DNA of 32,000 nucleotides from positions 2,190,001-2,222,000 of the forward strand of contig NZ_CP080507.1 of the NCBI RefSeq assembly GCF_019464535.1, in the 5' to 3' direction. Shown here piece after piece: positions 69-17,372 of this stretch (positions within the stretch are counted from its first letter, which is position 1; each line of letters begins with the position of its first letter). This DNA is from Horticoccus luteus (lineage in GTDB: Bacteria > Verrucomicrobiota > Verrucomicrobiia > Opitutales > Opitutaceae). A program made the position numbers and the translations under genes. Below the pieces are notes generated by a model, which worked only from the letters and a program-made list of their open reading frames with translations, did not search any database and was not told the DNA's origin.

Positions 69-1040
69 TCACCCCGGCACCTCCACCGCGGCCACGATTT
101 GCCGCAACAACGCCGCGATCTGCCGCCGCTCTTCGAGCCCTTTTCCCACGTGCCGCGCCAGCGAAAGCCGATGCGCCAGCACCGGCCCCACGAGGTCCGC
201 CACATCCTCCGGCAGCACGAAGTCGCGCCCCCGCAACAGCGCCCGCGCCTGCGCCGCCGTGCGCAACGCCAGCCCTGCCCGCACGCTCGCCCCGATTTTC
301 AGCTCCGCCTCCGTGCGCGTCGCCGTCACCAGCCGCAGCACATAATCGAGCACCGATTCCTCGACGAACACCCGCCGCGTCATCGCCTGCAACTCCAGCA
401 CTTCTTCCCGCGAGAGCACGGGCGACACCGCGATTGCGTCATAGCTGGTCTGCGCCGTGCGCAGGATTTCCCGCTCCGCCTCCGGTTCCGGATAACCCAT
501 TTCCAGTCGCAATAAAAACCGGTCCATCTGGCTCTCCGGCAGCGGAAACGTGCCTTCGTAATCCACCGGATTCTGCGTGGCGAACACCATGAACGGCGCG
601 CCCACCGCATGCGCGCGTCCATCCACCGTCACGCGCGCACGGTCCATCACTTCGAGCAGCGCCGACTGCGTCTTCGGCGTGGCGCGGTTGATCTCGTCCG
701 CCAGCACGATGTTCGCAAACACCGGCCCCGGTTTGAACAAAAACTCCCGCGTCACCTCGTCGTAAATCGCCACGCCCGTCACATCCCCCGGCAGCAGATC
801 GCTCGTGAACTGGATGCGCGAAAACTCCCCGTCGATCGCCCGCGCCAACGCGTAGGCCAGCGTCGTTTTGCCCACGCCCGGCATGTCTTCGATCAACACA
901 TGCCCGCCCGCCAGCAACCCCACCAGCACCCGCTCGATCACGTCGTCCTTCCCTTTGATCGTCACGCGCATCGCCGTGCGCACCCGCGTGAGGGCACTCC
1001 GCGCCAACGCCACCTTTTCTGCCGGCAGAAAATCAGCCAT
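69..1040 (-). CDS. MoxR-family AAA+ ATPase
   Basis: ORF 69..1118 trimmed to the ATG at 1038-1040 (MADFLPAEK...). Walker A GVGKTT, LLPGDVTG, and Walker B/sensor VLADEINRATPKTQSALLEVM form a classic MoxR (AAA_3) signature. Confidence 0.9.
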   Translation of the reverse strand: MADFLPAEKVALARSALTRVRTAMRVTIKGKDDVIERVLVGLLAGGHVLIEDMPGVGKTTLAYALARAIDGEFSRIQFTSDLLPGDVTGVAIYDEVTREFLFKPGPVFANIVLADEINRATPKTQSALLEVMDRARVTVDGRAHAVGAPFMVFATQNPVDYEGTFPLPESQMDRFLLRLEMGYPEPEAEREILRTAQTSYDAIAVSPVLSREEVLELQAMTRRVFVEESVLDYVLRLVTATRTEAELKIGASVRAGLALRTAAQARALLRGRDFVLPEDVADLVGPVLAHRLSLARHVGKGLEERRQIAALLRQIVAAVEVPG

Positions 1041-1215
1041 GCCCGCGACGCTAACCTCCGCCCGCCGCGGTGCAAACGCCTTCACCCGCCACCGCGTTTC
1101 CTTTCCCCTGTTCCCCATCCTTCATCGCCGCAAACGCCCTCGCCGCCTGCCCGCGGCACGGTCTCACCGAAAAGATTCGCCCCGTGGCCATGCCCGCGCA
1201 AATAAGCCTCCCGCC

Positions 1216-2181
1216 ATGCCGCTCATCGACAAACCGCTGCCCGAACTCCTCCGCTATCAGGGCCTGAATCCCCGCCCCGCCGACTTCGACGCTTATTGGG
1301 CCGATGCCCTCCGCGAACTCGACGCCACCGATCCCCAGCCCGAACTCGTGCCCACCGCCGAGATCGCGCCCCGCCACAGCGAGGCCTTCGATCTGTGGTT
1401 CACCGGCGTCGGCGGCGCGCGCGTTTACGCGAAATACGTCCGCCCGAAAAAATCCCCCGGCCCCGGTCCCGCCGTCCTCCAATTTCACGGCTACTCCGGC
1501 AACGGCGGCGATTTCCTTTCCCGCCTCGCCTGGTCCGGTGAGGGCTTCTGCGTCGCCGCCATGGATTGCCGCGGCCAGGGCGGCCGCTCCCAGGATAGCG
1601 GCAGCGTGCACGGCCCCACGCTGCGCGGCCACATCGTGCGCGGACTCGACGATCCCGACCCGCGCAAACTCGCATTCCGCCAGATCTTTCTCGACACCGT
1701 CCAACTCGCACGCGTCGTCATGAACTTTCCCGAGGTCGATGCCGCCCGCGTCGGCGCGATGGGCGGTTCGCAAGGCGGCGCCCTCACGCTCGCGTGTGCC
1801 GCGCTCGAGCCACGCATCAAACGCGCCGCGCCGCTGTATCCGTTTCTCTGCGATTACCGCCGCGTCTGGGAGATGGATCTGGCCAAGGATGCCTACGAAG
1901 AACTCCGGATTTTCTTCCGCCAGTTCGATCCGCGCCACGAGCGCGTGGACGAGATTTTCACCAAGCTCGGTTACATCGACTGCCAGCACCTCGCGTCGCG
2001 CATCCAGGCGGAAGTCATCATGTACACCGGCCTGATGGACCCGATCTGCCCCCCGTCGTCGCAATTCGCCGCCTACAACAAAATCACGGCGAAGAAGTCG
2101 CACATCATCTATCCCGACTACGGCCACGAAACGCTCCCCGGCGAGACCGACCGCACCTTCAACTTCATGCTCGGCCTCTGA
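1216..2181 (+). CDS. CE7 acetyl xylan esterase / cephalosporin-C deacetylase family
   Basis: ORF 868..2181 trimmed to the ATG at 1216 (MPLIDKPLPELLRYQG...). All three CE7 signature motifs are present: RGQ (CRGQGG), GxSQG (GGSQGG) and HE (YGHE). Confidence 0.9.
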   Translation: MPLIDKPLPELLRYQGLNPRPADFDAYWADALRELDATDPQPELVPTAEIAPRHSEAFDLWFTGVGGARVYAKYVRPKKSPGPGPAVLQFHGYSGNGGDFLSRLAWSGEGFCVAAMDCRGQGGRSQDSGSVHGPTLRGHIVRGLDDPDPRKLAFRQIFLDTVQLARVVMNFPEVDAARVGAMGGSQGGALTLACAALEPRIKRAAPLYPFLCDYRRVWEMDLAKDAYEELRIFFRQFDPRHERVDEIFTKLGYIDCQHLASRIQAEVIMYTGLMDPICPPSSQFAAYNKITAKKSHIIYPDYGHETLPGETDRTFNFMLGL

Positions 2182-2213
2182 TCATTCCCCCTCTCGCCCC
2201 CCGAAATCGCGCT

Positions 2214-2243
2214 CTTAATCTTAATCATAATCGTAATCGTAAT
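2214..2243. repeat. Hexamer tandem tract (NNTAAT)x5: cttaat cttaat cataat cgtaat cgtaat
   Basis: Read directly downstream of the esterase stop. A related cttaatcgtgctcgtaatcg string recurs inside the GT4 CDS at about 7263-7285. Confidence 0.8.
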
Positions 2244-2392
2244 CGCCAACGCCTTCCCGCGTCGCGCCGCCCGCGCCGCCCGCCTCCGCCCGCGTAAATG
2301 GTAACAAATCACGAATAACGTTCCTCCGCGCACGAAGCCCGCCTCCTCTCTCGACTCGCCGCCCGCCGTCCCCCACGGTCCGGGTCCGCGCC

Positions 2393-3208
2393 ATGTATCA
2401 GAGCTTTTATGGGTTTACGGAGATGCCGTTCAACATCACTCCGGACCCCAAATTCCTCTTCCTCAGCCCCACGCACCAAGAGGCCCTGCAACACCTCAAG
2501 TTCGGCGTGCAGGAGAAAAAAGGCTTCATCGTGCTCGTCGGCGAAGTCGGTTGCGGCAAAACCACTCTCTGCCGCCGGTTCCTCAACGAGCTCGATCCCG
2601 CGCACTTCGATACCGCCCTCATCCTCAACCCCCGCGTCACCGAAACGCAGATGTTGAAGGCGATCCTCACCGAACTCGGCGAAAGCAAACTCGCCCGTTC
2701 CCAAGTCGACCTCGTCGCCCAGATCAACGGCGTGCTCCTCGACCGCATCGCGCAAGGCCGCGACATCGTCCTCATCATCGACGAAGCCCAGAACCTCCAC
2801 CCGGACGTCCTCGAGCAAATCCGCCTCCTCTCCAATCTTGAGACCGACAAACAGAAGCTCCTGCAAATCGTCCTCATGGGCCAGCCCGAGCTCAAGACGG
2901 TCCTCTCCCGCACGGAACTCCGCCAGCTCCGCCAGCGCATCCTCGTTCACTACGAGTTGAAACCGCTCACGCTGGGCGACGTACACGCCTACATCCAGCA
3001 CCGCCTCACCCTCGCCGGCACCAGTGGCCGCCCCACGTTTACCCCCTGGGCCCTGCGCGCGATCTTCCGGCACAGCGGCGGCATTCCTCGCCTCATCAAT
3101 CATCTTTGCGACAAAGCCCTCCTCGCCGCCTACGTGCGCGACTCCGACCTCGTCAACTACTGGGACGCCCGCCGCGCCATCCGCGACGTCCGCAGCCTCA
3201 CCACCTGA
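2393..3208 (+). CDS. ExeA/GspA-like AAA ATPase (PEP-CTERM-locus type secretion ATPase)
   Basis: The N-terminus MYQSFYGFTEMPFNITPDPKFLFLSPTHQEAL, Walker A GEVGCGKTT, Walker B IVLIIDEAQNL and the LVLMGQPEL motif are typical of ExeA/GspA and the TIGR03015-like subfamily. Confidence 0.85.
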   Translation: MYQSFYGFTEMPFNITPDPKFLFLSPTHQEALQHLKFGVQEKKGFIVLVGEVGCGKTTLCRRFLNELDPAHFDTALILNPRVTETQMLKAILTELGESKLARSQVDLVAQINGVLLDRIAQGRDIVLIIDEAQNLHPDVLEQIRLLSNLETDKQKLLQIVLMGQPELKTVLSRTELRQLRQRILVHYELKPLTLGDVHAYIQHRLTLAGTSGRPTFTPWALRAIFRHSGGIPRLINHLCDKALLAAYVRDSDLVNYWDARRAIRDVRSLTT

Positions 3209-3251
3209 ATCCCGCTCCTCCCCGCTTCGCGTTACTCCCTCCACGCCCCCG

Positions 3252-4157
3252 ATGAGCCTCATCAACGACGCCCTCAAAAAAGCGCAACGCCAGCGCGCCC
3301 CCGATGCCGCGGGTGGCTCCGGCGCGTCCCCGGCGGGCGGCGTCGTCGCGAAGCGCTCGCAACCCCTCGCCGCCAAGTGGATCGTCCTTCTCGCCCTCGG
3401 CGGCGTCGCCCTGATCGTCCTCGTCGCCGTGTCCGTGACTCTATTCATTTTAAGCGACACCCCCGCGCCGCGCGTCGCCGCCAACGCGCCATCCGCCGCC
3501 CATCGTCCCGCCACCCCCTCGGTCCCTTCCACGTCCGCCTCCGGCCCTTCGTCATCCGCCATCCGTCCTCCGTCATCCGTCGTCGGTCTCCAGCCCTCCG
3601 CTCTCACGCCCGCATCCCCAGACGCCGCGCAACCCACCTCCGCCGTCCCCGCGCCCAGCGAAAGCCCCGCCCCTCCTGCCGCCAGCACCCCGCGCCCCTC
3701 CGCCGAAACCGCCGCGGTCGCCTCTCCCCGGTCCGTTCCTCCCTCTTCCGCCCTCACTCCGCCTTCAACCGCCTCCCGCTCTCCGTCGTCTGCCGTCAGC
3801 CCTCCGCCCGCCACCGTCAGCGCCGCGCTTTCCGAGCCACCCGCAGTCACCGCCACCCCTTCCGCCGTCAGCCCCGCGTCCGCGACGCTCCGCCCGCCCG
3901 CTCACGACGTCCGCGACGCGCCCGCGGTGAGCTTCGCGATTCCGCATCCCGACGAACGCATCATTGCTTACGTTGATCACCTGCGGGTCACCGGCATCCG
4001 CTCCTCGGGCGCCGACAGCAAAGTGCTCATGAACGACCGCGTGTACCGTGTGGGCGACATCGTGGACCGCGACCTCCAGTTGAAACTCGTAAAAGTCGCC
4101 CCCGAGCTCCTCACCTTCGAAGACCCCCGCGGCCTGACCTACACAAAAAACTTCTAG
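3252..4157 (+). CDS. GspB-like single-pass membrane protein with long Pro/Ser/Ala-rich linker
   Basis: ORF 3024..4157 trimmed to the ATG at 3252 (MSLINDALKKAQRQR, a typical ExeA-partner N-terminus). It has a TM helix WIVLLALGGVALIVLVAVSVTLFIL, a low-complexity linker, and a C-terminal RVTGIRSSG...VLMNDRVYRVGDIV...LKLVKVAPELLTFED domain resembling GspB_C. It lies 43 nt after the exeA-like stop. Confidence 0.6.
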   Translation: MSLINDALKKAQRQRAPDAAGGSGASPAGGVVAKRSQPLAAKWIVLLALGGVALIVLVAVSVTLFILSDTPAPRVAANAPSAAHRPATPSVPSTSASGPSSSAIRPPSSVVGLQPSALTPASPDAAQPTSAVPAPSESPAPPAASTPRPSAETAAVASPRSVPPSSALTPPSTASRSPSSAVSPPPATVSAALSEPPAVTATPSAVSPASATLRPPAHDVRDAPAVSFAIPHPDERIIAYVDHLRVTGIRSSGADSKVLMNDRVYRVGDIVDRDLQLKLVKVAPELLTFEDPRGLTYTKNF

Positions 4158-4170
4158 CCCCCGGCTGAAG

Positions 4171-4768
4171 CGTTCGACTAACGAATAACGATTAACGAAT
4201 TTCGATTTACGCCCCACCCCGCCATTCGTGTCTGTTCGTGTCCATTCGTGGTTAAAACAGGAGCATTCTACAGAAGGTAACGAAGGTAAGGAAGAAGCGC
4301 TCGGCCACGTCCGTTCGACTCACGAATAACGAGTAACGAACACCGATTCACCCGTCTGCCCATCTGTGTCCATCTGTGGTTAAAGAAAATGCCTTTTCGA
4401 CCGTCGCCACAGCTCACCCCGCCATTCGTGTCTGTTCGTGTCCATTCGTGGTTAAAACAGGAGCATTCTACAGAAGGTAAAAACGGTAATGAAGAAGCGC
4501 TCGGCCACGTGCGTTCGACTCACGAATAACGAGTAACGAACACCGATTCACGCATCTGCCCCCATCCGTGTTCATCTGTGTCCATCTGTGGTTAAAAAAA
4601 CGCCTTTCCAATCCTCGCCACAGAGTAAATCCCATACCTCTCCTCGGTGGATGGATTAACGAATAACGGTTAACGAATTTCGATTTACGCTCCTCCCCAC
4701 CCATTCGTGTACGTTCGTGTTCATTCGTGGTTAAAAATACTCTCTCCGGAAATTCGCGCCTCTTCGCG
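4171..4768 (+). repeat. Composite mosaic repeat locus 1 (two 200-bp tandem units plus a partial third)
   Basis: 4215-4414 and 4415-4622 align base for base apart from one extra decamer. Modules are CATTCGTG x3 + GGTTAAAA, TACAGAAGGTAACGAAGGTAAGG..., CACGAATAACGAGTAACG..., and CATCTGTG x2 + GGTTAAA. A 52-mer at 4269-4320 is identical to 8291-8342. Confidence 0.9.
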
Positions 4769-4855
4769 TGATGAGCGGGCCGCCCTCCCGTCGCTCACCC
4801 CGCACAAGATTCTGGTTTCCAGTCTCCCGCGCCAGCCCCATCCTCCGCCGCCACC

Positions 4856-6361
4856 ATGTCCGCTCCTGCCGCCCGCCTTCCTCGCCTCGTGGGTCAGGAT
4901 GAAACCAAACTCATCCGGCTGCACCCCCTCGAAAAACTTCTCCTCGCGGTCGTCGCCGCGCAGTTGGTGTTCTTGCCCTGGGCCGTCGGCGGCATGCGGT
5001 TGTGGGCGCAGTTCATCAGCCTCGGACTCAGCGCCGCCAGCCTCGCGCTGGCGCTGATGCCTCGTCACTACACCGATGAACACACGGGCGGCGAGGCGTT
5101 CACCCTCTATCCGCTCCGCCGCCTGCTGCGCTTTCCCCTCTTCTGGACCGGCCTGGTGTTCGCCGGCTACATCGTCATCGGTGCGCTCAACCCCGGCTGG
5201 CGCTACGAACACGACGGCGGGCGCTGGTGGATGCGCGAGATCCCCCGCATTTCCTGGCTGCCCCATGGCGTCACCGGCACGCCCTTCGACTGGGCGAGCC
5301 CGTGGCGGACCCTCATCATCTTCGGCGCGGCATTCCTGCTCGTTTGTGCGCTCTGGGTCGGCATCACCCGCCGTCGCTCGCTCCAGCTCCTCCTCCTCAT
5401 CCTCTGTATCAACGCCGTCCTGGTCGCCCTGCTCGCCATTACCATGCGAGCCACCGGCGCAACGAAACTCTATTGGACGTGGCCCAGCGCCAATCTTCCC
5501 TATGGACCGTTCGTCTATCGCAACCACGCCTCCGCCTGGCTCAACCTCATGATTGGAGCGACGCTCGCGCTCTCCGCGCTCTTCCACGAGCGCGCTCAAC
5601 GTGTCATGGCAAAGTCGAGCCCTGCTCCCCTGATCGCATTCGTCGCGGTCTTCCTCGGTGTGGTGGTGGCGGTCAGCCAGTCGCGCGGCGGCTTTATCGC
5701 GCTGCTCGTCTTCCTCGCGGCCGCCCTGGCCCTCGCCGGCGTGCGCCAACTTCGGCACCGGAGCACCTCCCGCATGCTGGCGATCGCCGCGCTCTTGGGC
5801 GCCGGCTTTATCGGCTTCGTTGCGCTCTCCTTCGATAGCTGGGGCGGCGCGCAAGCGTGGCAACGCTTCACGCGACTCTTCGAAGACCGTGACTCGTCCG
5901 TGACATCCCGCGAGTTGGCCACCCAGGCCACCATGGACATGTGGCGCGAAGCCCCGTGGTCCGGCGATGGCGCCGCTTCCTTCCGCTACGTTTTCCCTCT
6001 CTACCAGCAGCATTACCCTGACATTTACCAGCATAAGTCCGGTCGACAGACTATTCGCCAAGTCTGGGAGTTTGCGCACAACGACTGGGCGCAGATGCTC
6101 GCCGAATACGGTGTCATTGGCACCGGCATCGCCATCGCAGCTATCGCTTGGTGGCTGCTGGCCCTCCTCCGTCTGCGAGCCTGGCGTTATGCTCCGTCGC
6201 TCCTGCTCGTCTTCGCGGTCGGCATGACGCTCTTACATGCCCGCGGCGACTTCGTCCTGCACAATCCCGCCGTGCTGCTGAGCTTTGTCGCCGTCGCCGT
6301 CGTATCGCTTCGCCTCGCCGAATTCGCTCACGCCAGCGCCCGCCGCACCCGCTCCGCTTGA
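4856..6361 (+). CDS. O-antigen ligase / Wzy_C-domain polytopic membrane protein
   Basis: It contains many hydrophobic helices, a periplasmic-loop region, and the motif EFAHNDWAQMLAEYGVIGTGI typical of the O-antigen ligase (Wzy_C) family. Confidence 0.8.
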   Translation: MSAPAARLPRLVGQDETKLIRLHPLEKLLLAVVAAQLVFLPWAVGGMRLWAQFISLGLSAASLALALMPRHYTDEHTGGEAFTLYPLRRLLRFPLFWTGLVFAGYIVIGALNPGWRYEHDGGRWWMREIPRISWLPHGVTGTPFDWASPWRTLIIFGAAFLLVCALWVGITRRRSLQLLLLILCINAVLVALLAITMRATGATKLYWTWPSANLPYGPFVYRNHASAWLNLMIGATLALSALFHERAQRVMAKSSPAPLIAFVAVFLGVVVAVSQSRGGFIALLVFLAAALALAGVRQLRHRSTSRMLAIAALLGAGFIGFVALSFDSWGGAQAWQRFTRLFEDRDSSVTSRELATQATMDMWREAPWSGDGAASFRYVFPLYQQHYPDIYQHKSGRQTIRQVWEFAHNDWAQMLAEYGVIGTGIAIAAIAWWLLALLRLRAWRYAPSLLLVFAVGMTLLHARGDFVLHNPAVLLSFVAVAVVSLRLAEFAHASARRTRSA

Positions 6362-6469: not shown

Positions 6470-7990
6470 CTACTGTCCGCCCCGTTCCCCGACCAACGCC
6501 CGCCAAGCCGCCACGTGCCGGCTAAAGGTGAATGCTTGCTCCGCCAGCGCGCGCGCCCTGCCGCCCCGCTCCGCCGCATCGTCCGGCTCTCGCGCCGCCC
6601 CCCGAATGATCTCCGCCGCGCTCGCCACGTCGCCGGCCGGCACCGCCCAGCCCAACCCGTGTTCGCGCACCAGCCGCGCGCCTTCCGCGTCGAGGTCGCC
6701 CGTGAGCAGCAACGGCCGCCCCGCCGCGAAAATATTATACATCCGGCTCGGCACCGAGATCCCCGCCATCCCGGCCCGAAACGGCACCAGCATCACGTCC
6801 GCCGCCGCCAGCCAGTCATTCAACTCCGCCGGCGGACACGGCGGCGCGAGACAAACATTCGCCGCCCCACCCAACGCCGCGTCGACCTCCGCCCGCCCCA
6901 CGCCGCCCGCGTAAATGAGAAACCGAATCGACGCATCGCCGCGCAACGCCCGGGCGAGCGCGATCACCAACGCCCCATCGTGCGTCCGCCCCAACGTGCC
7001 GCCCACGCCGACCACCGTCTTCCCCTGCAACCCCCAACGCGACGTCACCGGCGACGCCTCCTTGGCCACAGCCCGCAACCCATCGACGTCCCCCCAATTA
7101 GGAATCACCACGATCCGCCCTCCACCGCCTCCCGCCTTGCCTCGTCCTCCTTCGCTTAATCTCACTCGCCCCACCTCCGTCGCGGAAGCCGTGACGCTGT
7201 CGTCCTCCCTTCCTCTCTCGACCGCAAAACCCGCTCCCTCCCCATCCCTCATCTCGCTCTTACTCTTAATCGTGCTCGTAATCGTCCCTCCCGCCGCTCC
7301 ACCCGCCGCCAGTTTGCGCGCGATCACGTCGCGCATATCCCGCCCCAGCACGACGATCTCATCGGCCATTTTGTAGCCGCCGCTGAACCCGCGATCGAGC
7401 TGCCGCAGCAGCCATCCTGGCCGCAGCCAACCCACCGCCGCAAAAACATCCGGATACACATCGTGCACCAGCACGATCACCCGCGCCCCGCGCCTCCGCG
7501 CCGCCCACACCACCGGCCACGGCAGCAACCGCGGGCTGGTCACCACCACCACGACGTCGCCCTGACGCAGATGAGTGAACGCCGCCCGCGTATAAGCGAA
7601 AGTCGTCGTCAGCCAGTTCAGCCCGAGCAACCACGCCCGCGACTTCGGAAACGTCGTGGCCCGCACCCGTCGCACAAGCACCCCCGGCACCTCCCTCGCC
7701 GGCCTAACCCCGACCGCCCCCACCCTTCCCAATCGTTCTCGTTCTCTTTCTCCCTCGACCGAGAATCCCGTCCGATATCCCTCCGCTCGGCACTCTTCGC
7801 CCGTAGCGGACGCCTTCAGACTTTCGTCCGCCATTCGACCTCCGCGCTCTGCCATCCGTCCTCCGTCGTCCTCCATCCGCCCTCCGTCGTCCGCCGTCCG
7901 CTCCCGCGCCAACGCCGTCGCGAGCTCCGTCACGACGCGCCCCGTCGCATCGTCCGGCCGGGCAAACACATCGCAGAAGAACCAAAGCAT
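6470..7990 (-). CDS. GT4 glycosyltransferase (WcaI-like) carrying two in-frame repeat insertions
   Basis: It is homologous along its length to the in-window paralog 20649..21836 (VIPNWGDVDG vs VIPNWADVEF, PSRMYNIFAAGRPLL vs PSKTYYSMAAGSALL, RARALAEQAF vs RARALAESQF) but is 506 aa versus 395 aa. Confidence 0.8.
   Translation of the reverse strand: MLWFFCDVFARPDDATGRVVTELATALARERTADDGGRMEDDGGRMAERGGRMADESLKASATGEECRAEGYRTGFSVEGERERERLGRVGAVGVRPAREVPGVLVRRVRATTFPKSRAWLLGLNWLTTTFAYTRAAFTHLRQGDVVVVVTSPRLLPWPVVWAARRRGARVIVLVHDVYPDVFAAVGWLRPGWLLRQLDRGFSGGYKMADEIVVLGRDMRDVIARKLAAGGAAGGTITSTIKSKSEMRDGEGAGFAVERGREDDSVTASATEVGRVRLSEGGRGKAGGGGGRIVVIPNWGDVDGLRAVAKEASPVTSRWGLQGKTVVGVGGTLGRTHDGALVIALARALRGDASIRFLIYAGGVGRAEVDAALGGAANVCLAPPCPPAELNDWLAAADVMLVPFRAGMAGISVPSRMYNIFAAGRPLLLTGDLDAEGARLVREHGLGWAVPAGDVASAAEIIRGAAREPDDAAERGGRARALAEQAFTFSRHVAAWRALVGERGGQ
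7118..7310. repeat. Intragenic repeat-derived insertion 2 in GT4
   Basis: It encodes AAGGAAGGTITSTIKSKSEMRDGEGAGFAVERGREDDSVTASATEVGRVRLSEGGRGKAGGGGG between ...VIARKL and RIVVIPNWGD. The DNA contains a hexamer-like cttactcttaatcgtgctcgtaatcg and a ccgtgac motif also seen in spacers. Confidence 0.7.
7715..7905. repeat. Intragenic repeat-derived insertion 1 in GT4 (11 in-phase C-rich heptads at 7828-7904)
   Basis: The heptads read ccgccat tcgacct ccgcgct ctgccat ccgtcct ccgtcgt cctccat ccgccct ccgtcgt ccgccgt ccgctcc. On the minus strand they are translated as DDGGRME DDGGRMA ERGGRMA, a 21-bp = 7-aa period. Confidence 0.8.
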
Positions 7991-8094: not shown

Positions 8095-8582
8095 CCCAAC
8101 CGCCCATCCGTGTTAATCCGTCTTCATCTGTGGTCAAAAATGCCTTTCGATCCTCTCCACAGAGTAAATCCCATTCCTCTCCTCGGTGGACGGATTAACG
8201 AATAACAGTTAACGAATTTCGAATTACGCTCCGCCCCACCCATTCGTGTCTATTCGTGTACATTCGTGGGTAAAAAAAATAAGAGTATTTTACAGAAGGT
8301 AACGAAGGTAAGGAAGAAGCGCTCGGCCACGTCCGTTCGACTAACGAATAGCGATCAACGAACACCGATTCACGCGTCTACCCCCCATCCGTGTTCATCT
8401 GTGGTCATCTGTGGTTAAAAAATGCCTTTCCGACCCTCGCCACAGAGTAAATCCCATTCCTCTCCTCGGTGGATGGATTAACGAATAACGGTTAACGAAT
8501 TTCGATTCACGTTTCTCCCCACTCATTCGTGTCCATTCGTGGTTAAAAATACTCTGCACCGGAAATTCGCGCCGCTTCGCGT
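8095..8582 (+). repeat. Composite mosaic repeat locus 2 (about 1.6 copies of a roughly 285-bp unit), same family and orientation as locus 1
   Basis: It has the same module order as 4171-4768 and shares the terminal module GGTTAAAAATACTCTnnnCCGGAAATTCGCGCCnCTTCGCG (8541-8581 vs 4729-4768). Confidence 0.9.
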
Positions 8583-10659: not shown

Positions 10660-10886
10660 CGGTCATCCGCCATTCGGCCGTTCGTTTAACCACAGATGTA
10701 CACAGATTAACACGGATGGTGGACATGCACGGTTTGAATGGCTCGTTCTTGGTTTTCACTTCGTTCACTTCTGTGAGAAAACGGGATTTACCGATAACCT
10801 GAGGCAGGAAGACTTGTTGAACCACGAATGCACACAAATTTACACGAATGGGCGGAACGCGGTTATTCGATGATCGTTATTCGTTA
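10660..10886 (-). repeat. Inverted-orientation copies of the mosaic modules
   Basis: ttaaccacagatgtacacagattaacacggatgg, cttcgttcacttctgtg, aaccacgaatgcacacaaatttacacgaatgg and cggttattcgatgatcgttattcgttaacc are reverse complements of modules seen at 4215-4690. Confidence 0.75.
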
Positions 10887-10893
10887 ACCAAAC

Positions 10894-11220
10894 AACCACG
10901 GCAGAAGTGATTGTTTAAACCTGCGTCAGGATTCGTGCCCATTCGTGTTTATTCGTGGTTAAAAAATTGGCCGTTGCACCGGCTCAGAGTGTTCTTCCGT
11001 GACCTCGGGTTGGGCTCTCCGTGACCTCTGTGGCAAAGGTCGGAATGCCTGGAAGCGGAGCTTAACCACGGCAGAGGTGATTGTTTAAACCTGCGTTCGG
11101 ATTCGTGCCCATTCGTGTTTATTCGTGGTTAAAAAATTGGCCGTTGCACCGGCTCAGAGTGTTCTTCCGTGACCTCGGGATGGGCTCTCCGTGACCTCTG
11201 TGGCGAAGGTCGGAACGTCT
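10894..11220 (+). repeat. 170-bp tandem duplication (copy A 10894-11050, copy B 11064-11220)
   Basis: My hand alignment finds 7 mismatches over 157 aligned bases. Copy B contains the last roughly 22 codons and the stop of the sugar transferase gene. Copy A keeps a ghost of the same ORF end (FATEVTESPTRGHGRTL*). Confidence 0.9.
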
Positions 11221-11880: not shown

Positions 11881-11922
11881 CGATTCGATCTGCGTTATTC
11901 GTTACCCGCTATTCGGGCTTCG
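11881..11922 (-). repeat. Short inverted AT-type heptad tract (6 in-phase units NNNTTCG)
   Basis: The units read cgattcg atctgcg ttattcg ttacccg ctattcg ggcttcg, the reverse complement of the CGAATNN type. The tract overlaps the stop and 3-prime end of the four-helix-bundle gene. Confidence 0.6.
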
Positions 11923-12319
11923 CGGTACCGGGCTTCCCGTCCGTCACATGGGTCCGCTTCAAATAGCTGATATACCCATTAATCACCTGCAACGCGCGTT
12001 CAACTTTCTGCCGCCCCTGGCTGATTAAGGATTCCGAAATCAAATCCTCATCGCGGGCGGTAATCAGATGATCGAGCACCTCCGTACACGAACCGCGCGC
12101 ATAGCTGCAGAATTTCGAGTTATCGAGATAATGATACCGCCCGTAGCCCTCTGCAATATTCGCGGTGACAGAACGAGCTGCACGCAAAACCTGATCGCCT
12201 AAACGATACCGCTCTTCGTGGGGCAAGACAGGAAGTACATTGCGATAAACGAACAAACGCAGCTCCCGGCCCGCCTTCCAGCAATCGAGATCCTCAAAAC
12301 TTCGAATCGGTGTACTCAT
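11909..12319 (-). CDS. Four-helix-bundle protein (23S rRNA intervening-sequence protein family, TIGR02436-like)
   Basis: FEDLDCWKAGRELRLFVYR...LGDQVLRAARSVTANIAEGYGRYHYLDNSKFCSYARGSCTEVLDHL is the characteristic family pattern. The gene looks less GC-rich than its neighbours. Confidence 0.9.
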   Translation of the reverse strand: MSTPIRSFEDLDCWKAGRELRLFVYRNVLPVLPHEERYRLGDQVLRAARSVTANIAEGYGRYHYLDNSKFCSYARGSCTEVLDHLITARDEDLISESLISQGRQKVERALQVINGYISYLKRTHVTDGKPGTAKPE

Positions 12320-12330
12320 AGGAGGAGACG

Positions 12331-12475
12331 AACAACGCTTAACGATTAACGCTTAACAACCAACAACGATTAACCACAGCAACGAATGACGAGTAACGCC
12401 CAACGAATAACGAATAACGATTAACGATTAACGACAGCAACGATTAACGATCAACGCTTAACGAATAACGATTTC
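12331..12475 (+). repeat. AT-type heptad tract (AACGNNT units, about 20 units with some phase breaks)
   Basis: ...aacgaat aacgaat aacgatt aacgatt aacgaca... was read directly. Its last units encode the aminotransferase C-terminus (VKSLFVKR) and its stop on the minus strand. Confidence 0.85.
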
Positions 12476-14037
12476 ACCCCCGCCACCACCCGCTCCAAAT
12501 CCGCCCGCGTGAGATTCGAACCCGACGGCAGACACAGCCCGCGCGCGAACAAATCATCCGCCACCTCGCCGCCAAACGTGTCGCAGCCCGCAAACACCGG
12601 CTGCTGGTGCATCGGCTTCCACACCGGCCGGGCCTCGATGTTCTCCTTCAGCAGCGCCTCGCGCAACGCTTCGCGGTCGCACCCAAACTTCGCAGGATCG
12701 ACCGTGATGCACGTCAGCCACCGCGTGCAGCGTCCGAACGCCGCCTCCGGCATGAATTCGATGCCCGGCAGATCGGCGAACGCCGCTTGATAAAACGCGC
12801 AATTCGCCCGCCGGGCATTCACCCGATCCGCGAGCACGCGCAGTTGTCCGCGTCCGATGGCCGCGAGCACATTGCTCATGCGGTAATTGAAGCCGATTTC
12901 GGAATGTTGATAGTGCGGCGCCGGATCGCGCGCCTGCGTGGCGAGAAACCGCGCCTTGTCGATCAACGCCTTGTCCGCCGACACCAACATTCCCCCGCCC
13001 GACGTCGTGATGATCTTGTTCCCGTTGAAGGAAAAAATCCCCAGCCGCCCCACCGTCCCCGGCGCAATCGGTTCCCGCACCGCGGCCGGAGCCCCGGATA
13101 ACGAATCACGAGTAACGGATAACGATTTCCTCCCATCAGATAACGCCCCCCCCGCCGCGTGCGCCGCAGGCGTTATATGCGGCCCGTCCTCCGCCGTCCG
13201 ATGGTCGCCCTCCGTCATCAGCCGTCCGTCCTCCGTCCGCCGTCCGCCCTCCGTCATCAGCCGTCCGTCCTCCGTCCGCCGTCCGCCCTCCGTCGTCCGC
13301 CCTCCGTCGTCCGCCGCGCCTGCGTCCCCGTCCCCGGATAACGGATCACGAGTAACGGATAACGGCAATTTACGATAGTAAATTGCCCCCAACGCCTCCG
13401 CCGCATCCTCGATCAAAGGTACGCCATACTGCGCGCACAGCCCCGCGATCGCGTCGAGATCCGCGCTCTGCCCGTAAAGATGCACCAGTATCACGGCCTT
13501 GGGCAGACGCCCCTTCGCCGCGCGATCCTTCAACGCCTCCTCCAGCCGCGCCGGATCCATATTCCAGCTCGTGCGATCGCTATCGATGAACACCGGCCGC
13601 CCGCCCTCGTAAGCGATGGGATTGACGCTCGCGCTGAACGTCAGCGTCGAGACAAATACCTCGTCTCCCCGCTGCAGCCCGATCAAGCGCAACGCCAAGT
13701 GCAACGCGGCCGTTCCAGACGACAACGCCGCCGCATACATCGGCGCGCCAGCGGCCCCGAATAACGAATCACGAGTAACGGAAAACGATCCCCCCCCCGT
13801 CCGTCCTCCGCCCTCCGCCGTCCGCCCCGCGCCATCCGTCGCCTGCCCTCCGCCCTCCGCCGTCCGCCCCGCGCCAGCGGACAACGGAGCACGAATAACG
13901 TCGACAAATTCGCTCTCGAATTTGTCGACGTGCGGCCCGAGCGGCGCGATCCAGTTGGTCGCGAACGCGTCCTGGACGAGCGACAGCTCATCCGGACCCA
14001 TGTGAGGGGAAGAAAGGTGAATGCGTGGTTTGGTCAC
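12451..14037 (-). CDS. DegT/DnrJ/EryC1/StrS-family PLP-dependent sugar aminotransferase with two in-frame repeat insertions
   Basis: The N-terminus IHLSSPHMGPDELSLVQDAFATNWIAPLGPHVDKFESEF, plus SSGTAALHLAL, EDAAEALGA, the PLP-lysine motif FSFNGNKIITTSGGGMLV and YNYRMSNVLAA-like FNYRMSNVLAAIG, identify the family. At 528 aa it is longer than the roughly 370-400 aa I recall as typical. Confidence 0.85.
   Translation of the reverse strand: MTKPRIHLSSPHMGPDELSLVQDAFATNWIAPLGPHVDKFESEFVDVIRAPLSAGAGRTAEGGGQATDGAGRTAEGGGRTGGGSFSVTRDSLFGAAGAPMYAAALSSGTAALHLALRLIGLQRGDEVFVSTLTFSASVNPIAYEGGRPVFIDSDRTSWNMDPARLEEALKDRAAKGRLPKAVILVHLYGQSADLDAIAGLCAQYGVPLIEDAAEALGAIYYRKLPLSVTRDPLSGDGDAGAADDGGRTTEGGRRTEDGRLMTEGGRRTEDGRLMTEGDHRTAEDGPHITPAAHAAGGALSDGRKSLSVTRDSLSGAPAAVREPIAPGTVGRLGIFSFNGNKIITTSGGGMLVSADKALIDKARFLATQARDPAPHYQHSEIGFNYRMSNVLAAIGRGQLRVLADRVNARRANCAFYQAAFADLPGIEFMPEAAFGRCTRWLTCITVDPAKFGCDREALREALLKENIEARPVWKPMHQQPVFAGCDTFGGEVADDLFARGLCLPSGSNLTRADLERVVAGVKSLFVKR
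13092..13364. repeat. Intragenic insertion B in the aminotransferase, bounded by 33-bp direct repeats
   Basis: CCCCGGATAACGAATCACGAGTAACGGATAACG at 13092-13124 matches 13332-13364 at 32/33 positions, offset exactly 240 bp. Inside is a perfect 39-bp tandem duplication, 13206-13244 and 13245-13283. Confidence 0.9.
13756..13900. repeat. Intragenic insertion A in the aminotransferase
   Basis: ccccgaataacgaatcacgagtaacggaaaacg is followed by C-rich heptads and then ggacaacggagcacgaataacg. A 29-bp exact repeat at 13806-13834 and 13848-13876 is spaced 42 bp apart. Confidence 0.85.
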
Positions 14038-14039
14038 GG

Positions 14040-14632
14040 TAAAGAGGTGAAGCGTTATTCGGTTCGGGTTATTGGATATTCAGAAGACCAAGACGAGTGG
14101 AATTCCGGCCGATCAGCGACAAGCTTCGCCCTGCGGCTTCCGTCAGTCAGCCGCCCGCCCTCCGTGCCCCACGAATAACCGATAACGATCACCGGCACGC
14201 CCCGCCCTCCGCTGTCCGTGCCCCACGAGTAACGGATAACGAGTAACACCGCGCTGCGCGGTCGCCTCCGCCCTCAGTCGTCTGCCATCCGCCCTCCGGC
14301 ATCCGCCCTCCGCCGTCCGTGCCCCACGAGTAACGGATAACGATTAACACCGCGCTGCGCGGTCGCCTCCGCCCTCCGCTTCCTCCGCGCCCTCCTGTAA
14401 AAATGTTTTGCTCGCCCCGGTCGCCGCCTAACAACGAATAACGATTAACGGCTAACGAATAACGATTAACGAGTAACGAATAACGAAGAACGAATAACGA
14501 TTAACGATTAACGAATAACGAATAACGATTAACGGCTAACGAATAACGATTAACGCCGCGCTGCGCGCTCCGCCGTCTGCCCTCCGTCCTCCGCCATCCG
14601 CCATCCGCCGTCCGGCGTCCGCCCTCCGCGCC
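14040..14632 (+). repeat. Large compound repeat spacer; core is 28 consecutive in-phase heptads at 14437-14632
   Basis: 17 AT-type units (aataacg/attaacg/gctaacg/agtaacg, 14437-14555) run without a phase break into 11 C-rich units (ccgcgct ... ccgcgcc, 14556-14632). The tract ends at the base before the vapC stop. Upstream are roughly 101-bp higher-order repeats (14203-14275 and 14303-14376). Confidence 0.9.
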
Positions 14633-15037
14633 TCAACGGCTCCCCTCTCTCGCTGGCTGACCGATCAACTCCACCGCGTCATCCTTGATGCCTGCGTCGA
14701 ACGTCGCCAGCCGCAGCCCGTTTTCACGCGCCAGTTGCGTGAGATACGCATCCGACGTTTTTACCGCCGTCGAAGCCCAGCGTGGCAGACGCGGCGATGG
14801 CGCAACCGCAATGAATCCTCCCACGTGCTCCTTCAACAAGGATAGGGCCTCTGACGCTTGCGCCAGACTGTAGCCAAACACCTGCATCGACACCCGCAAA
14901 AACCCAAGTTCAGTATGGGCGCAGGTCCAGAGATGGGAACGCCCTGCCTGCTTGGCCCAAGTGTGAAATGCCGCGTGATGCGATGAATCGCTGTGTTCCC
15001 ACGCGAGAAGGGCATTCACATCGAGGAGGTATTTCAC
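14633..15037 (-). CDS. vapC: PIN-domain ribonuclease toxin, VapC family
   Basis: MKYLLDVNALLAWEHSDSSHHAAFHTW...TELGFLRV...SDAYLTQLARENGLRLATFD matches the VapC (TIGR00028-like) pattern. It overlaps the upstream antitoxin ORF by 4 bp. Confidence 0.85.
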   Translation of the reverse strand: MKYLLDVNALLAWEHSDSSHHAAFHTWAKQAGRSHLWTCAHTELGFLRVSMQVFGYSLAQASEALSLLKEHVGGFIAVAPSPRLPRWASTAVKTSDAYLTQLARENGLRLATFDAGIKDDAVELIGQPAREGSR

Positions 15038-15276
15038 GGGAAATCAGCGAGCGCCGCCCGGATTTCCTCTTCCGTCACCACGCGGCCGGTGCCTGCTGCG
15101 TTGTGGGGCAAACCCGAAACCGGATGCTTCCGACGAACAATTTTAGTCGCCTGCCGTTCAGTTTCACCGAGTGCCGCCTTCCGGAGGTAGGCGGAAACCG
15201 ACGACTTAGCGGCCCGGGCCTTGTCCCGAATCCGCTGTGCCGACGCGGGATCCACTTTGAAACTGATAACGGGCAT
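15034..15276 (-). CDS. vapB: Antitoxin (RHH/CopG-like, VapB-type)
   Basis: This 80-aa ORF overlaps vapC by 4 bp. The N-terminal MPVISFKVDPASAQRIRDKARAAKSSVSAYLRKAAL is a ribbon-helix-helix-like segment. Confidence 0.7.
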   Translation of the reverse strand: MPVISFKVDPASAQRIRDKARAAKSSVSAYLRKAALGETERQATKIVRRKHPVSGLPHNAAGTGRVVTEEEIRAALADFP

Positions 15277-15319: not shown

Positions 15320-15745
15320 CCCCCGCTTCCTCCGCTACCGCCTGCAAAATTCACTTCACGAAACACCTGATCGAATAACGAATAACGATTAACGGCCCGC
15401 CCTCCGCCGTCAGTCCTCCGTCATCAGCCGTCAGACGTCCGTCATCCGCCCTCCGTCCTCCGTCATCCGCCATCCGCCGTCCGCCCTCCGCTCTCCGCCC
15501 TCCGCGCTCTCCGCGACCTCCTGTAAAATTCACTTCAGGAACGCCTGATCGAATAACGAATAACGAGTAACGGATAACGAGTAAACCGCGCTGCGCGGTC
15601 TCCGTCCTCCGCCCTCTCCGCTACCGCCTGCAAAATTTACTTCAGGAAACGCCTGATCGAATAACGAATAACGAGTAACGGATAACGATTAACGCCGCGT
15701 TGCGCGCTCCGTCCTCCGTCCTCCGTCATCCGTCGTCTGCCTTCC
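15320..15745 (+). repeat. Compound repeat spacer: three copies of a CTGCAAAATTCACTTCAGGAAACGCCTGATCGAATAACGAATAACGAnTAACGG unit alternating with C-rich heptads
   Basis: Unit copies lie at about 15325-15395, 15500-15600 and 15612-15706. 19 in-phase heptads run from 15374 to 15506. The final tract encodes the EpsI C-terminal tail and stop. Confidence 0.9.
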
Positions 15746-17149: not shown

Positions 17150-17372
17150 GATCCCGTCGTTATTGGTTATTCGGACTTGCCACCGGGAAACAGACATTCC
17201 GGCCGCGCCCATTCGTGCGCGCGGCCCATTCGTGTTACTTCGTGTGTATTCGTGGTTAAAACGCCTTGGCGCAGCGCAATCCGCACTCCGCGTTGCGGCG
17301 CGCCCGAGAAACGAATAACGCGCTCCCGATAACAGCGCGTCGCGCGCCACGAATAACGGAGCGCTTGGCGCT
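17150..17372. repeat. Repeat-containing spacer (inverted heptads, CATTCGTG block + GGTTAAAA, GC palindromes)
   Basis: cgtcgttattggttattcgg lies at 17156-17175. cccattcgtgcgcgcggcccattcgtgttacttcgtgtgtattcgtggttaaaa lies at about 17208-17261. A hairpin gagcgc-ttg-gcgctc at 17359-17373 abuts the ATP-grasp stop. Confidence 0.75.

Follow-up and report, generated by a model that had tools for sequence, protein, structure and literature searches.

A heptanucleotide tandem tract after vapC in Horticoccus luteus is part of a modular simple-sequence satellite

The window analyzed here is a 32-kb stretch of the genome of Horticoccus luteus (Opitutaceae, Verrucomicrobiota), and all positions are given in its numbering. 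It carries an exosortase-type polysaccharide locus with EpsI, DegT/EpsN, Bac_transf, CapD, Wzy and glycosyltransferase genes. The DegT-family aminotransferase encoded there shows 100% identity to an H. luteus protein. Between the stop codon of vapC and the start codon of degT in this locus lies a non-coding tract of tandem heptanucleotides (14437–14632) made of two unit types, NNTAACG (A-type) and CCGNCNT (C-type). We find that this tract is the largest expansion inside a modular satellite, not a free-standing object. The parts of the tract, the toxin-antitoxin (TA) genes beside it and the remaining spacer DNA are as follows.

14437..14555, plus strand: A-type heptad array, 17 units NNTAACG (CGTTANN on the gene-sense minus strand), no indels
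14556..14569, no strand: GC-palindromic junction CCGCGCTGCGCGCT, 14 bp, joining the A-type and C-type arrays
14570..14632, plus strand: C-type heptad array, 9 units CCGNCNT (G-rich, GGNGGNN, on the gene-sense minus strand)
14633..15037, minus strand: vapC (PIN-domain toxin), 134 amino acids (aa), Pfam PF01850 at 3.1e-7 and TIGR00028 VapC family at 1.7e-15
15034..15276, minus strand: vapB-like ribbon-helix-helix antitoxin, Pfam NikA-like/RHH_1, overlapping vapC by 4 bp
14038..14436, plus strand: remainder of the vapC–degT spacer, two 101-bp tandem modules and then the linker CCTCCTGTAAAA
15290..15742, plus strand: epsI–vapB spacer, the same modular satellite, including a second heptad tract at 15374–15506

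The A-type array is composed of AATAACG (n = 7), ATTAACG (n = 6), GCTAACG (n = 2), AGTAACG (n = 1) and AAGAACG (n = 1) units. It is followed by 11 C-rich heptads (14556–14632), the first two of which (CCGCGCT GCGCGCT) constitute the GC palindrome and the remaining nine of which follow the CCGNCNT pattern. The core of the palindrome, CCGCGYTGCGCG, is present in five copies in the window, at 14249, 14350, 14556, 15586 and 15695. Sequence identity at a lag of 7 bp amounts to 0.84 for the A half of the tract and 0.77 for the C half, compared with 0.07–0.46 at lags of 3, 5, 6, 8, 9 and 10 bp, and four-unit patterns of the two unit types are found 14 and 19 times in the window versus 0.00 times in 100 dinucleotide-preserving shuffles. 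Tandem Repeats Finder calls both arrays with a period of 7. With 17 and 9 head-to-tail 7-nt units, free of indels and beyond chance, the tract has the structure of a long simple sequence repeat (LSSR), and it is non-coding simple-sequence DNA of a real but ordinary bacterial kind.

The original prediction, an earlier note on this DNA, had listed these units and their coordinates, and both match base for base. It also placed the end of the 28-heptad tract one base before the vapC stop codon, which is borne out: the last base of the tract is 14632, and 14633–14635 (tca) is the reverse complement of the vapC TGA. On the coding (minus) strand of vapC, the C-type array is therefore G-rich and begins at the first base after the TGA. 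The same behavior had been described for the second tract at 15374–15506. This tract does consist of 19 heptads (3 A-type and 16 C-type), but its C-rich register, NTCCGCC, is two bases apart from the CCGCCNT register of 14437–14632.

That the phase is kept across the switch in composition had been taken as special. We attribute the clean phase to the way in which the units are cut, since any two period-7 arrays that abut, or that are linked by 14 bp, yield clean units when tiled into sevens. To describe the register between the two families we measured how far the first TCCG lies from the last TAACG, modulo 7. This offset is 4, 4, 5 and 6 at the four A-to-C junctions in the window; both junctions with an offset of 4 share the 14-bp linker CCGCGYTGCGCGCT and are therefore copies of one composite. 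In public metagenome contigs we scanned for NNTAACG arrays with a CCGNCNT array no more than 30 nt further on; the 47 independent junctions retrieved fill all seven offset classes (n = 11, 9, 8, 5, 5, 5 and 4). Together the window and metagenome offsets rule out conserved phase as a constraint, and an offset that varies in this way is the outcome that the original prediction had named as fatal to it. Nor are two-state heptad arrays undescribed, as had been supposed, because TAACTGA repeats mixed with other heptamers have been reported (MacGregor 2015, PMC4679880). Many two-state arrays are present in unrelated genomes, for example, among the matches listed, in loci L035 (GTCGTTA to GTCGGAA), L039 (GGCTAAC to AGATGAC) and L055, and they are also found in the relative L121.

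Modules of the satellite occupy the entire 595-bp vapC–degT spacer and the entire 412-bp epsI–vapB spacer. In the former, two 101-bp tandem modules (14202–14275 and 14303–14376; 97% identical) consist of C-type heptads, CACGAGTAACGGATAACG, the hairpin CCGCGCTGCGCGG and further C-type heptads. The latter contains 107-bp higher-order units (15481–15723), and its last C-type heptads form the 3′ end of the epsI open reading frame (ORF). The 18-mer CACGAGTAACGGATAACG is found, exact or near-identical, at six sites in the window, including the inside of degT, and a linker of roughly 35 bp starting with CCTG[TC]AAAA is found at five. Within the A-type array, identity at a lag of 21 bp (0.89) is slightly above that at 7 bp (0.84). 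This superperiod arises because a three-unit block (AATAACG, ATTAACG, GCTAACG) has been re-duplicated and is present at both ends of the array.

The satellite also extends into coding sequences, at the following positions.

13758..13869, plus strand: composite insert in degT, near the N-terminus, A module and C-type heptads, in frame
13098..13365, plus strand: composite insert in degT, in the loop before the catalytic-lysine segment, A module, C-type heptads with a 39-bp superperiod and A module, in frame
12328..12473, plus strand: A-type heptad array between degT and a four-helix-bundle gene, the 5′ arm of an S23p/intervening-sequence protein (IVP) cassette
7824..7901, plus strand: C-type heptads, in frame, in a GT4 glycosyltransferase ORF (6470..7990, minus strand) close to its N-terminus

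The DegT ORF of the window (12451–14037, minus strand) encodes 528 aa, compared with about 378 aa in insert-free orthologs, and the additional ~150 aa are due to the two in-frame inserts derived from satellite modules (13758–13869 and 13098–13365). Its last codons and stop codon (12451–12475) derive from the A-type array at 12328–12473. The in-gene superperiods of 39 and 21 bp, the former corresponding to five heptads plus 4 bp, are both multiples of three, and the DegT ORF stays open. In other Opitutaceae-like organisms, the DegT ortholog has inserts at these two positions that likewise derive from repeats but differ from those of the window, and all insert-bearing orthologs retain the frame; the closest DegT cores have no inserts. 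As the in-gene copies are free of stops and keep the frame, and as arrays run up to coding boundaries, we conclude that selection filters the repeats.

C-type heptads also code for part of the long Pro/Ser/Ala-rich middle of an ORF at 3252–4157 (plus strand), which comes after the AAA_22 (ExeA-like) gene and begins with MSLINDALKKAQ. The predicted product has one transmembrane segment and a conserved-looking C-terminus. It had no match to any Pfam or NCBIfam model, and we presume that it resembles a GspB/ExeB-type partner.

All 24 chains of at least three units (12 per type) have the same orientation on the plus strand of the window. Plus-strand genes near heptads include AXE1 (868–2181), AAA_22 (2393–3208) and Wzy_C (4856–6361), and the heptads among them (3534–3581, 4175–4211 and 4654–4676) point the same way on the chromosome as those among minus-strand genes, which rules out that orientation is set by transcription. 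Short runs in inverted orientation exist as exceptions at 14047–14081 and 11893–11915. The runs that bear on orientation are listed below.

4175..4211, plus strand: A-type heptads among plus-strand genes, upstream of Wzy_C, with a further set at 4654–4676
14047..14081, minus strand: degenerate heptads in inverted orientation, CGTTATTCGGTTCGGGTTATTGG, located just before the degT start and able to serve the 17-unit array as a weak inverted partner
11893..11915, minus strand: short run of heptads in inverted orientation (sense strand GGGTAACGAATAACG), immediately past the S23p stop codon, the 3′ arm of the S23p cassette

Plus-strand GC skew is approximately −0.05 to −0.33 over the window except in the last 2 kb, and is strongest in the heptad-rich first half. 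This puts the C-type unit, in its G-rich form, on the G-rich strand, presumably the leading one. Locus L121 is a mirror image, with a skew of +0.12 and G-rich units on the plus strand. In these two loci, array polarity is set by the chromosome strand and not by transcription, the pattern that a process tied to replication would produce.

The window also contains a second, unrelated repeat family, at 4215–4730, 8106–8560, 10691–11215 and 17228–17254. It consists of decamers (CCATTCGTGT / CCATCTGTGT) ending in GGTTAAAA that sit in tandem units of 170–200 bp (93–96% identical) and, unlike the heptads, are found in both orientations.

Comparison with relatives reveals that the repeats can be gained or lost as a whole. 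In L122/L123, the orthologous exopolysaccharide (EPS) locus has no lag-7 tract in 21 kb, its spacers are 18 bp and its DegT is a compact 378 aa, and L121 has more than 10 G-rich heptad arrays, including arrays at the same two DegT sites. Only 31 bp separate the PIN gene from degT in L171, and L172 has a C-rich copy on the sense strand inside degT. The TA genes at the degT junction of L171 are unrelated in sequence to vapBC of the window, so the TA pair is not an inherited neighbor of the repeat. Judged across these genomes, the repeats are an infestation of particular lineages, and the operon has not conserved them. Exact-protein look-ups of the window VapC gave no match, and no second H. luteus sequence was found.

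Changes in unit sequence and copy number can be followed in two of the other loci. L121 exhibits a stepwise drift of units in one register (GGACGGC, GGACGTC, TGACGTC, TGACATC). In L174–L181, eight strain-level variants, a spacer of a related family adjoins a start codon and consists of a heptad array, the hairpin GGCCTTCGGCC and a second heptad array. The eight are identical over 304 bp apart from a gain of 7 bp (one unit) in two strains and a loss of 50 bp (a whole module) in one, and these length changes are apparent signatures of slippage and unequal recombination.

We also noted cassette-like gene content at several of these loci. Approximately ten small genes, with heptad arrays between them, lie between ABC2_membrane and ABC_tran of a polysaccharide exporter in L174 (~100 to 5080) and in L175–L181; they include DUF5647, DUF433 with a DUF5615/Mut7-C toxin, DUF2283 and S23p, and the gene content varies among strains. 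In L171, a diverged degT 5′ fragment of about 50 codons followed by G-rich repeats (8175–8450) lies upstream of two TA pairs (PemK-like and PIN) that precede the intact degT, an arrangement that suggests cassette insertion or allele replacement by recombination at a repeat-bearing site. The epsI–degT junction holds unrelated TA modules in two lineages (14633–15276 in the window, 8453–9969 in L171) and none in L122, and to judge from its gene content it looks like a hot spot for small selfish cassettes.

Beyond these relatives, arrays of at least four NNTAACG units are present in at least 120 genome contigs. Hosts among the matches listed include Bacteroidota, Chloroflexota, Cyanobacteria, Acidobacteriota, Nitrospirota, Gemmatimonadota, Patescibacteria, an archaeon, Streptomyces, Yersinia and Erwinia. 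In this set 106 of the 122 arrays, from 120 genomes, are not spanned by an ORF; in-ORF copies examined in the window keep the frame. The gene neighbors are of ordinary lengths and functions (e.g., ribosomal proteins, NusG and ScpA), and all four gene configurations are represented (31 / 18 / 24 / 11) with a mild excess of convergent over divergent.

We consider it probable that the tract is a slippage-driven, strand-polar, modular heptanucleotide satellite without a required function. Two unrelated 7-bp families, NNTAACG and CCGNCNT, each make up a tandem array, and the arrays are joined by the 14-bp GC palindrome. Palindrome, arrays and the ~35-bp linker are reused as 101- and 107-bp higher-order units. 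In the mechanism that we propose, replication slippage would alter array length by 7 bp or several units at a time, and modules would recombine unequally with one another; every sub-array would thereby stay free of indels and in phase. Arrays would expand until halted by purifying selection, which would explain why the tract ends exactly at the vapC stop codon and why in-gene copies are stop-free with lengths divisible by three. The original prediction had mentioned slippage alone as a fallback, and it is this part of it that is best supported. A sequence-specific function is unnecessary to explain the tract, and a role as spacer, weak terminator or RNA-processing site is secondary and unproven. 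No Rfam family matched at gathering score in the whole 32-kb window, and the predicted folds are no better than those of shuffled sequences (z = +0.61 for the tract, z = +1.07 for the whole vapC–degT spacer); on these grounds we reject a structured RNA. Canonical promoters and terminators were rejected as well, their counts being no different from those in shuffles.

Several observations weigh against this reading. The 18-bp module is copied exactly or nearly so at six sites including degT, which local slippage alone does not explain, so that some dispersal process (gene conversion, recombination or mobilization) is required. Slippage likewise leaves unexplained why distant relatives have repeatedly received insertions at the same two loops of DegT. 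Copy-number instability at the vapC tract itself is argued by analogy with a different organism (L174–L181). The link between orientation and replication strand has a small evidence base, consisting solely of one 32-kb window and L121, and local GC skew gave no prediction of array orientation in 47 mixed-taxon metagenome loci (16 vs 13). Finally, the tract may yet have a regulatory or RNA-processing role.

Heptads of these families also surround the S23p gene downstream of degT.

11909..12319, minus strand: four-helix-bundle gene (23S rRNA intervening-sequence protein / S23p), PF05635 at 2.3e-27 and TIGR02436 at 3.9e-25

This gene is bracketed by inverted arms, with CGTTANN units upstream (12328–12473) and TAACG units past the stop codon (11893–11915), and the arms are predicted to pair in both minimum-free-energy and centroid folds. 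We found the same bracket in L121 (11509–12137 and 15060–15765), L171 (11300–11840), L172 (11410–11892) and L104 (704–1197), and in three of three loci picked by the protein alone (L174 2940–3670, L182 2920–3470 and L183 2930–3420), one of which is a Lentisphaeria genome. The bracket is thus found in several phyla. The cassettes lie between polysaccharide-operon genes and have GTTAYNN-type or G-rich units upstream and the complement downstream. Both unit families of the tract thus appear to serve elsewhere as arms of cassettes like the intervening sequences (IVSs) of 23S rRNA. Contigs with close homologs of the four-helix-bundle gene are mostly 0.5–3 kb long, which fits assembly breaks at flanking arrays.

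According to a more novel alternative, which we regard as unlikely, the heptad arrays ((C)GTTAYNN / NNRTAAC(G) and GGNGGNN) would be the working ends of widespread, undescribed mini-cassettes that colonize operons, especially polysaccharide loci, across phyla, and the vapC tract would be one such boundary. The cargo would be an S23p/four-helix-bundle gene or a TA pair. Inverted arrays would form register-independent stems for excision by RNase III from polycistronic mRNA, and direct arrays would provide homology for the gain, loss and exchange of cassettes and for the in-frame colonization of permissive enzyme loops such as those of DegT. As general cassette boundaries, NNTAACG arrays are ruled out: their neighbors are ordinary genes, and 2 of 100 scanned, among the matches listed, are PF05635. 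The cassette reading is kept for S23p genes alone, whose bracketing is consistent.

A narrower version, in which the tract itself is an RNA-processing arm, strikes us as quite improbable. Here the 17-unit array, (CGUUAUU) in RNA, would pair with the heptads at 14047–14081 upstream of degT, and cutting of the resulting stem by RNase III would uncouple the vapBC and degT mRNAs, with the many units permitting pairing in any register. The inverted partner exists and is 71–87% complementary over 15–35 nt, the S23p gene of the same operon is bracketed by arms that pair, and the bracket recurs in the seven other loci named above, twice in L121. There is a precedent in the S23p-bearing IVS, which is excised by RNase III at terminal inverted repeats and which in Coxiella carries strain-variable tandem heptamers before the S23p ORF (PMC4990558). 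At the vapC tract, however, the partner on the 3′ side is short as well as degenerate, and no cargo gene lies in the 354 nt that separate the arms. The predicted fold of the whole spacer leaves the pairing of this partner with the 17-unit array unused and, like that of the tract, is at shuffle level, and the arrays on either side of vapBC are direct and not inverted.

The position of the C-type array raises the question of a G-quadruplex (G4) or other G-rich regulatory repeat, in which the GGNGGNN array past the vapC stop codon would pause polymerase or stabilize the 3′ end, or the hairpin and the U-rich CGUUAUU run would act as a terminator. The array does start at the first base after the stop codon with the G-rich sequence on the coding strand, a preferred position of such repeats (PMC4692102), and a consensus scan marks 14569–14552 (minus strand; a weak terminator-like hairpin at the GC palindrome) and 15408–15391 (minus strand) as terminator-like. 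But none of the seven C-type arrays in the window contains a (G3+N1-7)x4 motif, there are 2 GGG runs in 14556–14632, and the six terminator-like matches compare with 4.9 ± 2.1 expected from shuffles. Moreover, the arrays keep their chromosome-strand orientation among plus-strand genes and are found inside ORFs, and the copy inside degT of L172 is C-rich on the sense strand. We judge such a role very unlikely.

Phase variation of surface structures driven by simple sequence repeats (SSRs) is well established (PMC4679880). Applied to this locus, 7-bp slips would frameshift degT or the glycosyltransferase gene, or change spacer length, and thereby switch EPS, and the vapC tract would be part of a hypermutable locus. 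A unit length not divisible by three inside EPS genes (degT, GT4 and the 3′ end of epsI) is the classic layout of a contingency locus, and single-unit indels do separate strains in the related array of L174–L181. Against this, the tract is intergenic and follows the 3′ end of vapC, over 400 bp away from the degT start, where a 7-bp change frameshifts nothing; the in-gene arrays are imperfect mixtures of units that slip poorly; insert-bearing orthologs are all in frame; and the repeats also lie beside ordinary housekeeping genes in many genomes. Rehm et al. thought phase variation unlikely for their heptamers for the same reason (PMC4692102), and we give it very little weight here.

Least tenable, and in our view highly improbable, is the phased protein-binding or structural role suggested in the original prediction, in which a protein would recognize TAACG and/or CCG cores every 7 bp (21 bp = two helical turns) and coat the tract: TAACG cores recur strictly every 7 bp along 119 bp and the 21-bp superperiod scores slightly above 7 bp, but that signal comes from the re-duplicated three-unit blocks, the two unit types stand in no constant register, arrays may change freely in copy number (L174–L181), the units tolerate many variants and in-frame translation inside ORFs, predicted RNA folding is no better than shuffled, the neighbors of NNTAACG arrays in 120 genomes are, among the matches listed, unrelated ordinary genes in all four configurations, and no candidate binding protein is encoded beside the arrays.

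The claim of a two-state array with conserved phase and a phased binding role fails and has little importance. More useful is the context, a genome lineage in which heptad repeats have a fixed chromosome-strand polarity. Between related genomes such repeats can appear or vanish altogether, and they intrude in frame into conserved enzymes, at loops where insertion recurs; this affects gene calling, the comparison of protein lengths and assembly. The link of heptad arrays to S23p IVS-like cassettes outside rRNA makes RNase III processing a testable route to why heptamers are common in bacteria.

The H. luteus satellite can be compared with several known repeat systems. Mazel and colleagues reportedly described in 1990 the short tandemly repeated repetitive (STRR) sequences of heterocystous cyanobacteria, genome-wide families of tandem heptanucleotides in intergenic DNA. 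STRR1 units are CCCCAAT-like, STRR2 units TTGGTCA-like and STRR3 units CAACAGT-like, and we know of no paired AT-rich/GC-rich composite described for them. The original prediction drew a parallel with STRR sequences, which stands as far as the general kind goes, a heptanucleotide tandem array; set against the STRR consensus sequences, the units (NNTAACG / CCGNCNT) and the verrucomicrobial host place the tract outside that group. Rickettsia palindromic elements, 100–150 bp long, were reportedly described by Ogata and colleagues in 2000 as in-frame insertions in protein genes. The likeness is that conserved proteins tolerate repetitive DNA in frame in surface loops, here at two putative surface loops of DegT in several Opitutaceae; the H. 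luteus elements, however, are tandem heptads and not palindromic, and no mobility mechanism is known for them.

The IVSs of 23S rRNA in Leptospira and Coxiella are matched by PF05635 genes in the window and in at least nine related or unrelated loci that are bracketed by complementary arms of the same heptad families. The cassettes here differ in lying between protein-coding polysaccharide genes and not in rRNA, and the vapC tract flanks vapBC, not S23p, with a weak inverted partner.

In many bacteria the commonest LSSRs are heptanucleotides, which have been ascribed, as a proposal, to polymerase slippage (Mrazek, Guo & Shah 2007, as relayed in PMC4679880). Like the LSSRs of that account, the tract consists of head-to-tail 7-nt units far beyond chance length, and such repeats are mostly intergenic and phylogenetically sporadic (Mrazek 2007 via PMC4679880). 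Relative to LSSRs as summarized there, the H. luteus satellite is distinct in joining two unrelated families by a conserved GC palindrome within 101-/107-bp higher-order units, and in having multi-unit modules copied to several sites, including the inside of a conserved enzyme gene.

In Xanthomonas and Nostoc, arrays of the G-rich heptamers GGGNATC and GGGGA(C/T)T lie on the coding strand less than 50 bp past stop codons; strains differ in the length of these arrays, for which no function has been demonstrated (Rehm et al. 2015, PMC4692102). The H. luteus repeats share with them G-rich heptamer arrays, over-represented in non-coding DNA between co-oriented ORFs (PMC4692102), and the tract likewise has its G-rich coding strand within 50 bp of a stop codon. 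Its GGNGGNN units, in contrast, have mostly GG runs, with no canonical G4 motif of four G3 tracts, and show no bias toward sets of four; an AT-rich heptad array is joined to the G-rich ones, whose orientation follows the chromosome strand.

TAACTGA repeats of Beggiatoaceae, Cyanobacteria and Bacteroidetes are intergenic, are often mixed with other heptamers, adjoin start or stop codons and differ between strains in 7-nt steps (MacGregor 2015, PMC4679880). The A-type unit shares their TAAC core (GATAACG vs GATAACT), and the Saprospiraceae array L038, among the matches listed, mixes TAACTGA with TAACGAA/TAACGGA units. The H. luteus units nevertheless end in CG and not CT, the gene-sense strand is the reverse complement (CGTTANN), the host is a member of the Verrucomicrobiota and the tract lies after a stop codon and not a few nucleotides before a start codon, so that it departs from TAACTGA repeats both in unit and in orientation upstream of a start. 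In the literature we found no description of Opitutaceae or Horticoccus repeats. The tract is best filed as a heptanucleotide SSR that differs from STRR and TAACTGA repeats in its units and from the GGGNATC type in lacking a canonical G4 motif, and it adds a verrucomicrobial example to a known, functionally unexplained class of bacterial heptanucleotide repeats.

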